The position numbers and the translations under genes were made by a program. The notes under the pieces are model-generated. The model had not been told where the DNA came from, ran no database searches, and saw only the letters and a program-made list of their open reading frames with translations. A stretch of 64,000 bases of DNA from Sphingobacteriia bacterium (GTDB taxonomy: Bacteria; Bacteroidota; Bacteroidia; NS11-12g; UBA9320), in assembly GCA_008080835.1 (NCBI GenBank), contig VMDK01000027.1:1514-65513 (forward strand). Reading direction: 5' to 3'. Shown here piece after piece: positions 50,759 to 52,210 of this stretch (position 1 is the first letter of the stretch; each line of letters opens with the position of its first letter).

Positions 50759-50853
50759 GAGTAAGTTTTCCCGCCTGTGACAGGAAAACAGGTTTCGGTT
50801 TAGGGCATCGGGTTTCTCGCTAGAGGTGGGTAAGCCGGTGTCGACCCTATACA

Positions 50854-50928
50854 CTGTCGCGGATTTGCAATCCGTGACAACTTCAAAGCACGGGTTCTGT
50901 GCAGTCACGGATTACAAATCCGCGACAG
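50854..50928. repeat. 75-nt nested palindromic element (two 25-nt arms, each itself a hairpin, one mismatch) downstream of fumC
   Basis: ctgtcgcggatttgcaatccgtgaca (50854-50878) versus gtcacggattacaaatccgcgacag (50904-50928). Each arm contains gtcgcggatt / aatccgtgac self-complementarity. No T-tract follows. Confidence 0.6.
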
Positions 50929-50992
50929 GAGCTCGAACAAGTGTAATGGCATTTACTTTATAAAAGCGGGCCATAATGCGATCGTACCCGGA

Positions 50993-51193
50993 TTGAAGTT
51001 CACCATTCTCACCATGCTTCTCGGCTGGTGGGGTATCCCATGGGGACCGATCTATACCATCGGTAGCATCTTCCGCAATCTCAGTGGCGGCGTCGACGTC
51101 ACCCAGGAAGTGATCGAATCCATGGCTACTCCGGAAGAGGAGACCGCGGAGGAGATCGTGGAACAGGTTGAAAGGAGACTTGAGGACAGTTAG
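50993..51193 (+). CDS. Small hypothetical membrane protein (TTG start), doubtful
   Basis: 66 aa. Hydrophobic N-terminus (LLGWWGIPWG), acidic tail. Overlaps the extended 3' end of the adjacent four-helix-bundle pseudogene. No supporting motifs. Confidence 0.25.
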   Translation: MKFTILTMLLGWWGIPWGPIYTIGSIFRNLSGGVDVTQEVIESMATPEEETAEEIVEQVERRLEDS

Positions 51194-51563
51194 GGGATAG
51201 GAGATAGGTGTTCGGGATTGACTTGAGGTAACGCATGTAACCCGAGATCATCTTCTCTAATTCCTGCAATTCATTAACATGGTGATTCATTTCATTATTC
51301 GAAAACCCATAATTCCCTAGAAGCATCAATTGTGTTTCAAGCTAATAGCAAGAGCCAAGAGCTATTCTGAGGTAATTCAGGAAAGAACGGTTAGTCTGTG
51401 CACATCCCTCCGCAATATTGGATGGAATAGAAATGGCACTTTTTTGGATCTGCCTGCCTAGAGCAGAGAATTCTAGATTTTTTGAGGAAGAAGTAAGTTC
51501 AAAAGCGGATCTGGCAATTCCCAATGATCTTTGCCAAATCTCCAGATTGCGAAAATTTCTCAT
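51126..51563 (-). pseudogene. Four-helix-bundle protein gene (23S rRNA intervening-sequence protein family) interrupted by an in-frame TAG
   Basis: The N-terminal part MRNFRNLEIWQRS...IPSNIAEGC...LGSCY stops at TAG (51342-51344). The same frame continues LETQLMLLGNYGF...ELEKMISGYMRYLKS. Family members read ...GSCSELETQL... there, so a sense codon has become amber. The C-terminus then runs on past the expected end. Confidence 0.5.
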
Positions 51564-51673
51564 TCCGCAATGAATTAGATTTCATTGACATGCTAGAAAA
51601 AAATATGGTCCGCGTTAAAATTCTCTCTCCCAGCGCCCCTATCTCCCATCTCCTAGAACCTATCTCCTAAAAC

Positions 51674-52210
51674 CTACCACTCGTTCTTCCACATCATGCT
51701 CTCAATAGGCTTGATGGTGCGTTCGTTGTACTTGGCGTTCTTCTTTTTGTTGTAGAAAGTTTCGATCTCGCCTTCTACCTGGAAATAGATGAGCTGGCCG
51801 ATAGGCATGCCGCGGTAGATGCGTACAGGCTGCGCGCAAGAGATCTCCAAGGTCCAGGTATTGCAGAACCCGACGTCACCTTTACCGGCAGTAGCGTGAA
51901 TGTCGATCCCCAGACGTCCGGTACTGGACTTCCCTTCGAGGAATGGTACGTGAGCATGCGTTTCTGTGTATTCTTCTGTCACACCCAGATAAAGCGTATT
52001 TGGTTGAAGTACGAATCCGTCAAGCGGGATCTCGAAGTACTGGATCTTATTGTGTTTTCTGGCGTCAAGAACCCTGTTGTCGTACGTCGCGAGGTATTTC
52101 CCAAGGTGTACGTCATAAGAGTTGGTTCCTAGACATTCAGGACGGTAAGGTTCGATCAGGATCGTGCCTTTGTCGATCTCTTCAAGTATTCGCTTATCAC
52201 TCAGTATCAT
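51674..52210 (-). CDS. dcd: dCTP deaminase
   Basis: 178 aa. MILSDKRILEEI...GTNSYDVHLG, dUTPase-like fold signature. Confidence 0.9.
   Translation of the reverse strand: MILSDKRILEEIDKGTILIEPYRPECLGTNSYDVHLGKYLATYDNRVLDARKHNKIQYFEIPLDGFVLQPNTLYLGVTEEYTETHAHVPFLEGKSSTGRLGIDIHATAGKGDVGFCNTWTLEISCAQPVRIYRGMPIGQLIYFQVEGEIETFYNKKKNAKYNERTIKPIESMMWKNEW

Follow-up and report, generated by a model that had tools for sequence, protein, structure and literature searches.

A four-helix-bundle gene with two private lesions, enclosed by complementary heptamer arrays next to dcd in a Sphingobacteriia bacterium

Small four-helix-bundle (4HB) proteins of the PF05635 family are encoded within the intervening sequences (IVSs) of 23S rRNA genes in Leptospira, Coxiella burnetii and Xanthomonas, where terminal inverted repeats enclose the open reading frame. 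In the Coxiella IVS, the S23p (4HB) ORF comes with a 28-bp terminal inverted-repeat stem that is cut by RNase III, and tandem GACAGAT heptamers—variable in number—lie upstream of the ORF, which is itself in decay (PMC4990558). Genes of the same family also stand free of rRNA, singly and in intergenic positions, in Bacteroidota, Cyanobacteria and others; their products, of ~118 aa, go by the name 'four helix bundle protein' (TIGR02436). The Coxiella paper is the only one we found that links heptamers with this ORF family, and our searches of the literature turned up no description of free-standing 4HB cassettes flanked by heptamers, which is not proof that none exists. The locus described here lies in a 64,000-nt stretch of a Sphingobacteriia bacterium assembly (GCA_008080835.1, contig VMDK01000027.1), referred to below as the window. 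It has the ORF and the enclosing terminal inverted-repeat stem of the rRNA elements, the stem being evident from the arms in the window, from those in the sister lineage L179, and from predicted folds. It differs from them in that both of its arms are heptamer arrays, and in that it occupies no rRNA gene, neither at helix 25 nor at helix 45 of 23S rRNA, but is flanked instead by dcd and a small protein gene. Rfam found no rRNA between 50700 and 51800, nor any recoding RNA family; its matches were confined to a sub-threshold 'microRNA' that falls on an unrelated 80-bp palindrome.

The gene is a full-length PF05635/TIGR02436 reading frame on the minus strand, running from 51563 to 51210, with TAG inside it at 51342–51344. 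When the stop is rendered as X, the conceptual product matches both family models end to end, PF05635 at 83.2 bits (cut-off 33.8; profile positions 1–106 of 106) and TIGR02436 at 88.5 bits (cut-off 24; positions 1–109 of 109, the match ending at residue 114). The reading given in the original prediction, MRNF…LGSCY, then amber, then LETQL…YLKS, is seen as claimed. The closest solved structure is 2gsc (XCC0516; E = 5e-32), and searches with PADLOC and PHROGs gave no meaningful matches. Codons 1–73 (MRNF…LGSCY; 51345–51563, minus strand) are identical to residues 1–73 of the intact protein P0001, and are annotated as a 73-aa product, P0242; codons 75–118 (LETQL…YLKSIPN; 51210–51341, minus strand) remain in frame, and are the same as in the intact allele. 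The amber codon between them replaces GAG, for Glu74, which is invariant in a family alignment of 37 sequences. The motif SIPSNIAEG is thus kept in the window copy, and the motif GS..ELETQ is broken (GSCY-E-LETQ, with TAG for E).

Over an interval of ~940 bp, the window differs from contigs of the P0001 type essentially by two changes, and both are private to it. One is a G→T nonsense change at 51344. A change from GAG was the example given in the original prediction for the origin of the amber codon, and GAG is what occupies that codon in 13 of 13 metagenome contigs near-identical across the interval (L002, L004–L007, L009, L010 and L190–L195), in all of which the gene is intact, 118 aa long, and ends with TAA after …KSIPN. 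The other is a deletion of 41 bp between 11-bp direct repeats (CAATCCCGAAC), the sole surviving copy of which, at 51210–51220 on the minus strand, marks the deletion junction. The deletion took the native TAA, together with 30 bp of 3' spacer. All nine relatives aligned for both lesions (L002, L004, L009 and L190–L195) retain both copies of the repeat and have G at 51344.

Loss of the TAA is why, as had been observed earlier, the C-terminus does not stop where other members of the family do. The frame runs on to 51126, and its overlap with a convergent 66-aa ORF (50993–51193, plus strand) is real. The run-on tail, TYLLSPNCPQVSFQPVPRSPPRSPLPE (51126–51209, minus strand), has no homology to the family; it is of low complexity, as described, but only because it reads the acidic C-terminus of the neighbouring gene in antisense: the deletion has fused the frame to that gene's 3' end, and so given the tail its odd, proline-rich composition. 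What remains in the 66-aa ORF that borders the cassette is the C-terminal part of a conserved small membrane-protein gene of ~125 aa, which is full-length in L001. The locus thus lacks an uninterrupted ORF of ~110–130 codons with a stop of its own: codon 74 is a premature TAG, the native TAA is gone, and this copy is an ordinary pseudogene of the 4HB family.

Could the amber codon be an error of sequencing or assembly, and the gene intact in the organism? The T at 51344 occurs in no other contig, the truncated product is found on just one (an NCBI contig of 68,782 bp in the cluster listing, against 6 and 16 contigs for the intact alleles), an exact look-up of the 73-aa product gave no match, and the assembly is possibly one made from a metagenome. 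Since the T is seen on a single contig, that base could be wrong, and that base only. Taken as an account of the whole, error is unlikely, because the same gene in the same assembly bears a second, independent lesion, and the fusion caused by the loss of the stop would stay even were the substitution mistaken. The loss of sequence between two 11-bp direct repeats points to replication slippage, and an assembler that uses k-mers longer than 11 is unlikely to produce it. A similar deletion nearby, of 24 bp between 12-bp repeats, is common to the window and the independent contig L190, which shows that deletions of this kind occur here as natural polymorphisms of the population. The converse proposal, that the lesion is no lesion because TAG is read through or reassigned to yield a full-length protein, has a chance close to nil. 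The frame does stay open past the TAG, identical to the intact allele, but of the 30 open frames in the window with 300 or more codons TAG ends 8, dcd and the small convergent gene included; it is a normal stop here, and programmed readthrough, one of the alternatives originally offered, is rejected on that account. The relatives, moreover, have the family-invariant Glu codon at this position, no recoding RNA family was detected, and any readthrough product would still bear a nonsense tail of 27 residues, its native stop having been deleted. Recoding plays no part at this locus. It is also highly improbable that the N-terminal fragment of 73 aa functions as a short form of the family, or as half of a split gene, annotated though it is as a protein (P0242) in one public assembly. 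Among 120 homologues listed, 119 are 111–144 aa in length and the one exception is 97 aa, so short forms are not normal in the family; of the four helices covered by the Pfam and TIGRFAM profiles, three precede the stop, which lies at the invariant GS..E motif; and the 67-aa ORF downstream can start only with a TTG inside helix 4.

The pseudogene fills the gap between two convergent genes, dcd (dCTP deaminase; 51674–52210, minus strand), which lies upstream of it in the same direction, and the small membrane-protein gene; neighbouring genes encode a WD40 protein, ACPS, fumC and cytochrome c biogenesis functions. Short inverted repeats had been said to flank the gene. They exist, but they are not simple repeats: they are imperfect tandem arrays of heptamers. 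The 5' arm (51635–51676, minus strand), evident from the sequence, from TRF, from inverted-repeat pairing, and from MFE and centroid folds alike, is G-rich and of the type TAGGNNN, its units reading TAGGTTT, TAGGAGA, TAGGTTC, TAGGAGA, TGGGAGA and TAGGGGC; the first of these holds the stop codon of dcd (TAG, 51674–51676). The 3' arm (51191–51209, minus strand), found by inverted-repeat search and in the folds, is C-rich (ACCTAT, CTCCTAT, CCCCTA) and complementary to the first, and the stop codon of the small convergent gene (51191–51193, plus strand) sits within it. Pairing can take place in two registers, 51191–51208 with 51638–51655 (18 nt, 89% complementary) and 51191–51209 with 51658–51676 (19 nt, 84%). 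These inverted repeats are beyond chance: GGAGATAGG occurs five times in the 64 kb against an expected 0.38, three of the five at the two flanks, and a 22-nt pattern of two units occurs at the two flanks only, where none is expected. Across the whole window, TRF reports a single array of period 7, at 51638–51669, and also period 14 at 51648–51676. Minimum free energy and centroid RNA folds pair the arrays in the intact and the window cassette, although the fold energy of the cassette as a whole is unexceptional (z = −0.9 and −1.8). Between the 5' arm and the ATG is a spacer (51564–51634, minus strand) in which no sigma-70-like promoter was found, and a scan of the cassette's own strand for intrinsic terminators and sigma-70-like promoters—Bacteroidota-type promoters being outside its range—found neither.

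This arrangement is not peculiar to the window. Heptamer arrays, their unit sequences varying, bracket most free-standing members of the 4HB family. In a survey of unrelated metagenome loci (76–80, the number varying by test), autocorrelation peaks at lags of 7 and 14 appear in both flanks of the ORF and not in the ORF itself. In 61 of 80 loci, TRF finds arrays of period 7, 14 or 21 no farther than 150 nt from the ORF, at a density about 11 times that elsewhere in the same loci. For 40 of 76 loci, the two flanks score higher for mutual complementarity than 99% of shuffled flanks, and in 15 of 24 reverse-complementing the downstream unit gives the upstream one, with at most one mismatch, compared with 4.7% of pairs drawn across loci. 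The sequence of the arms varies from locus to locus. Mismatches between arms, read on the sense strand, comprise 59 G:U and 91 A:C, counts that are not independent since the units repeat; G:U is not enriched over A:C. This wobble test thus lends no support to a role of the stem in RNA, and complementarity could therefore be maintained at the level of DNA. The GC-skew polarity of the arms is strongly biased (49 loci versus 2), a polarity which, being symmetric under reverse complementation, is uninformative about the orientation of the gene.

The same chromosomal site carries different cassettes in sister lineages. L179 has the same cassette as the window lineage, its protein 75% identical and its arms 38 nt long and 95% complementary. 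In L001, L003 and L008, the site downstream of dcd is occupied by another 4HB gene, in the opposite orientation and only 41% identical, flanked by arrays of GGCATCG/GGTATCG and CCCGAnA units, the number of GGCATCG copies being 1, 4 or 5. The genes of the window lineage and of L179 are orthologous and have units of the TAGGAGA type; L001 has another gene and other units. Simple inversion can be ruled out as the link between the two kinds of cassette, because the proteins share so little identity and the array units differ. Genomes whose dcd is 90–92% identical have neither the 4HB gene nor the arrays after dcd; their downstream neighbour differs too, and a true empty site, with synteny kept on both sides, was not found among them or elsewhere. 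A scan of a genome collection with the neighbouring small protein gave relatives of 62% identity or less in many phyla, and no orthologous dcd–fumC site. As for recent movement, each exact protein looked up occurred in one genomic context, and no identical proteins were found in differing ones.

With these comparisons in hand, the proposition that the flanking repeats belong not to a cassette but to the host—as a bidirectional terminator, or as chance low complexity between convergent genes—can be weighed. In its favour, both convergent genes have stop codons that touch or run into the arms, no other terminator is present in the interval, and complementary arrays without any 4HB gene exist in some genomes (L130). 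We consider it decidedly improbable, nonetheless. The type of unit travels with the gene, as the window lineage and L179 attest when set against L001; within a locus the two sides match, and across loci they do not; period-7 arrays are strongly enriched beside 4HB genes in unrelated loci, most of which have the gene between co-directional neighbours and not convergent ones; and those relatives of dcd that have no 4HB gene have no arrays either. The feature is very probably, instead, a 4HB gene cassette, promoterless and hairpin-bounded, lodged between dcd and the small membrane-protein gene in a copy that was inactivated recently.

Other small elements resemble such a cassette in part. Apart from being a pseudogene, by its nonsense codon and its stop-loss deletion, the window copy is like the free-standing TIGR02436 genes, heptamer flanks included. 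Avd (bAvd, PF22296), of the diversity-generating retroelements, has a homologous four-helix-bundle fold, and several close homologues of the window protein match PF22296; the cassette here, though, has no reverse transcriptase and no template and variable repeats, for within 5 kb to either side we found no reverse transcriptase-like ORF, and no such repeat pair nearby, the neighbours all being housekeeping genes. Integron gene cassettes, an ORF plus an attC hairpin, are likewise small, promoterless, placed in the sense direction within a host transcription unit, and furnished with imperfect inverted repeats, but they have one attC downstream, whereas here there are repeats on both sides of the ORF; neither a GTTRRRY core site nor an integrase gene is present. 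Nor does the element look like a transposon or MITE, there being no direct repeat outside the arms, a single copy in the 64 kb, and no conservation of arm sequence across loci. Cyanobacteria have short tandemly repeated repetitive (STRR) sequences, heptanucleotide arrays reportedly described by Mazel et al. in 1990, which similarly consist of tandem 7-nt units in intergenic DNA; these are said to be dispersed repeats, not inverted pairs around a gene. The unit in the window is a different one and its host is Bacteroidota-like, while one surveyed locus, L127, has CCCCAGT/CCCCAAT, the STRR1 unit.

If the folds are a guide, the two arrays would pair over a long range and form a stem around the ORF, most likely in the transcript that reads through from dcd. 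Such a stem would mirror that of the 4HB-encoding 23S rRNA IVSs, and by analogy with the cut made there its cleavage by RNase III is predicted. The cassette, it appears from the sister lineages, may be gained, replaced and lost as one unit. More broadly, and tentatively, since we think it somewhat doubtful, hairpin-bounded cassettes may form a widespread and essentially undescribed class that has the free-standing 4HB genes as its cargo, laid out as a G-rich tandem heptamer array, a promoterless ORF of ~118 codons, and a complementary C-rich array. The traits we would list as observed are unit sequences peculiar to each cassette lineage, array copy numbers variable within populations, a usually sense orientation within host transcription units, and replacement or flipping at one chromosomal site, as in the three lineages after dcd. 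Were the idea correct, 4HB-encoding rRNA IVSs would be special only in that the cassette had come to lie in a helix of rRNA; heptamer arrays like the STRRs of cyanobacteria, and the hairpins of L130 that have arrays but no gene, could be its non-autonomous relatives.

What is out of the ordinary at this locus is the repeat-bracketed 4HB cassette, an under-described type; the pseudogene inside it is ordinary. Bracketing by repeats is a general trait of the 4HB family, of which we found no account outside ribosomal RNA. For annotation, the consequence is that neither the 73-aa nor the 67-aa ORF should be called a protein: they are parts of a pseudogene with two lesions and no recoding. For the function of 4HB/IVS proteins and the origin of rRNA IVSs, questions open since the 1990s, there are now two concrete handles, namely the matching inverted heptamer arrays around most free-standing members, as in the Coxiella IVS, and the single chromosomal site at which sister lineages have different, oppositely oriented cassettes. 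Both bear on whether these cassettes are mobile elements of an RNA- or DNA-hairpin kind.

The original prediction took the feature for a decaying insertion between fumC and dcd, and it has held up well. The intact orthologue is under purifying selection between lineages, with dN = 0.19 and dS = 3.55 for L002 against L179; a different 4HB gene sits flipped at the same site elsewhere, and gene and arrays alike are missing from the close relatives of dcd described above. In the genome of the window, the element is probably dying. The commonest intact allele in the population, P0241 (16 contigs), has S45F at an otherwise invariant Ser; selection on the gene may already have relaxed in this species.

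The window's four-helix-bundle (4HB) gene belongs to a known family and has become a pseudogene, a case of ordinary gene decay as the original prediction judged it, and its interest lies less in that decay than in the architecture of the arrays around it. On the minus strand, the first segment of the gene (51563→51345; MRNFRNLEIWQRS...NIAEGC...LGSCY) is followed directly by an in-frame amber codon, TAG, at 51344-51342, after which the same frame resumes and runs on to 51126 (LETQLMLLGNYGF...ISGYMRYLKSIPN). Translated through the stop as X, the frame aligns with the full length of both the PF05635 and the TIGR02436 profile and scores well above their curated cut-offs. The alignment goes no further than residue ~114, and the final ~27 residues therefore do not belong to the family. 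Among database homologues the best is P0001, which ends ...YLKSIPN and shows 100% identity to the conceptual translation once Glu is put at the stop.

Alignments of the interval account for both defects. The window has T where all relatives aligned have G, making the change GAG to TAG, as predicted; it also lacks 41 bp that in all relatives are flanked by two copies of CAATCCCGAAC, and the native TAA falls within this missing segment. Hence the failure, already noticed in the original prediction, to stop where the family stops: with the TAA gone, the frame is fused first to the 3' repeat arm and, beyond it, to the antisense of the convergent neighbour's acidic C-terminus (...PEEETAEEIVEQVERRLEDS), which produces the proline/serine-rich, 'low-complexity' tail. 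Both changes are private to the window. Contig L190 shares with the window a further deletion of 24 bp, between CTGTCGCGGATT repeats on the downstream side of the small convergent ORF, showing that slippage deletions segregate naturally in this population. The alternative of programmed readthrough, and with it that of TAG reassignment, would make the amber codon translatable; we reject both because TAG is the terminator of 8 of the window's 30 long open frames, that of dcd included. That short forms are normal in this family is likewise contradicted: Glu74 is invariant in an alignment of 37 sequences, and none of the listed 4HB homologues is a 73-aa form. The 73-aa product itself is recorded on one NCBI contig.

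Exact look-up of the adjacent dcd protein led to relatives at this interval: metagenome contigs that belong to one species-level population with the window, share about 97% nucleotide identity with it from dcd to fumC, and carry an intact 118-aa 4HB gene. Between lineages the ORF is under strong purifying selection (dN 0.19, dS 3.55), so the intact gene is functional elsewhere. Constraint may be relaxed across this population, as the commonest intact allele here, P0241 (16 contigs), hints: it has Phe in place of the family-invariant Ser45 of the SIPSNIAEG motif, a substitution found in 7/7 contigs (L002, L004-L007, L009, L010), while the window and P0001 keep Ser45.

The inverted repeats said to flank the gene are real, and far exceed chance expectation: 51191-51208 is complementary to 51638-51655 (18 nt, 89%), and 51191-51209 to 51658-51676 (19 nt, 84%). 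The flank upstream of the gene is the sole period-7 tandem array in the 64-kb window, reading, in gene sense, TAGGTTT TAGGAGA TAGGTTC TAGGAGA TGGGAGA TAGGGGC. The first TAG of this array is the dcd stop codon (51674-51676), and the opposite arm holds the TAG stop (51191-51193) of the small convergent ORF. Both host stops thus sit in the outermost TAGG units of the arms, in the window as in the related contig L179 (77-114 / 582-619), leaving zero spacer between host genes and cassette.

The dcd site was compared in three lineages, a check that had been proposed. The window lineage and L179 carry orthologous cassettes in the same orientation and with the same TAGGAGA/TAGGGGA units (small gene 86% identical, 4HB protein 75%). 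In L179 the arms reach 38 nt with 95% complementarity and overlap the stop codons of both host genes; the 18-nt pairing of the window is a worn version of them. Contigs L001 (4541-5095), L003 and L008 encode the identical dcd protein, with dcd and fumC at 82-88% nucleotide identity; the same dcd-proximal position is occupied there by another 4HB gene (41% identity), which lies on the opposite strand and is uncalled in the source annotation. GGCATCG/GGTATCG repeats border it towards dcd, and CCCGAnA repeats on the far side. GGCATCG occurs in 1, 4 or 5 copies in the three contigs, so the arrays are variable-number tandem repeats, such as are also reported for the Coxiella 23S rRNA intervening sequence (IVS; PMC4990558). 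In genomes with dcd 90-92% identical, neither 4HB gene nor arrays were found after dcd; these are no strict empty site, since the downstream neighbour differs. From these comparisons we infer that at this intergenic site the gene and its arrays remain a single unit through gain, replacement and loss.

The arrangement is widespread. Inspected by eye, nearly all of 80 metagenome loci encoding varied members of the family (31-43% identical to the query) have ~7-nt units in a short upstream array, with its reverse complement on the downstream side; the units are locus-specific. Autocorrelation peaks at lags 7 and 14 in both flanks (0.385 vs ~0.29 background), and not within the surveyed ORFs. By TRF, 61/80 loci have arrays of period 7/14/21 no more than 150 nt from the ORF; their density is about 5.4 per kb near the ORF vs 0.5 per kb in the rest of those loci. 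In 40/76 loci, flank-to-flank complementarity lies above the 99th percentile of shuffled controls, and in 15/24 the upstream and downstream units are reverse complements of each other (<=1 mismatch, whatever the rotation), vs 4.7% of cross-locus pairs. A G-rich 5' arm with a C-rich 3' arm is seen in 49 loci and the opposite in 2, a polarity that, being symmetric under strand exchange, describes the hairpin and says nothing of gene orientation. The gene is co-directional with its upstream neighbour in 49/64 loci and with its downstream neighbour in 56/61; about 70% is expected of any bacterial gene pair, so only the latter stands out. A median of only 70 nt separates the ATG from the stop codon of the upstream gene, and the array fills this gap.

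Several cassettes adjoin genes of nucleotide metabolism or DNA synthesis (L180-L189), as that of the window does dcd (51674-52210); those of P0003 and P0005 adjoin nucleoside transporter, thyA or DHFR genes, and that of P0112 has an imuB-like Y-family polymerase gene on one side and a dnaE2-like gene on the other. This may be coincidence. At L130 (2400-2700 and 2800-3200), many complementary heptamer arrays occur with no 4HB gene, GTCGTTG/GTTGATC facing CCAACAA/CCAACGA, some of them in frame within a 304-codon ORF, in its 3' part, and translated as ...VVDRSPSVVDRLSNSQQPTTNNQQ...; such arrays may be relatives of the cassette arms that lack a gene. The L127 units, CCCCAGT/CCCCAAT, are the classical cyanobacterial STRR1 unit.

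How might such a cassette work? Complementary arrays bracket a promoterless-looking ORF, and in predicted folds they pair. By analogy with the 4HB-encoding 23S rRNA IVS (PMC4990558), the arms of a read-through transcript from the upstream host gene would form a long stem around the ORF, a candidate RNase III substrate. Tandem units still pair when shifted by 7 nt, and this may be why the arrays tolerate changes in copy number. Arm mismatches do not favour G:U over A:C (59 vs 91); complementarity could be kept at the DNA level, through cruciforms, ssDNA hairpins or inter-arm conversion, for example. The window element, then, would behave like an rRNA IVS but lacks the defining location in rRNA. 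Identity with the Avd protein of DGRs is rejected, there being no RT, and class-membership criteria reject integron cassettes and MITEs. The closest solved relatives of the protein are uncharacterised pentameric bundles (2gsc, 2rld), and it matches no defence or phage families. In the literature searched, only the Coxiella paper links heptamers to this ORF family, so the general architecture of free-standing copies may be undescribed.

The interval probably holds a second gene remnant, the 66-aa ORF (50993-51193), because a palindrome stands in place of ~45 codons at the N-terminal end of a small membrane-protein gene, which is conserved, encodes 125 aa, is intact in L001 and has 50-62%-identical relatives across many phyla. 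This near-perfect 80-bp palindrome (CTGTCGCGGATTTGCAATCCGTGACA ... TGTCACGGATTACAAATCCGCGACAG; 50852-50930) separates fumC from the small ORF and has no second copy in the window, and searches of Rfam gave only spurious sub-threshold microRNA matches. Relatives are polymorphic for an extra 24-bp half-copy at the palindrome, absent from the window and L190. Just past the fumC stop, at 50790-50830, lies a short heptamer-like tract, GGTTTCG GTTTAGG GCATCGG GTTTCTCG, whose units resemble the sister-lineage GGCATCG/CCCGAAA arrays around the L001-type cassette; it may be the relic arm of another or older cassette.
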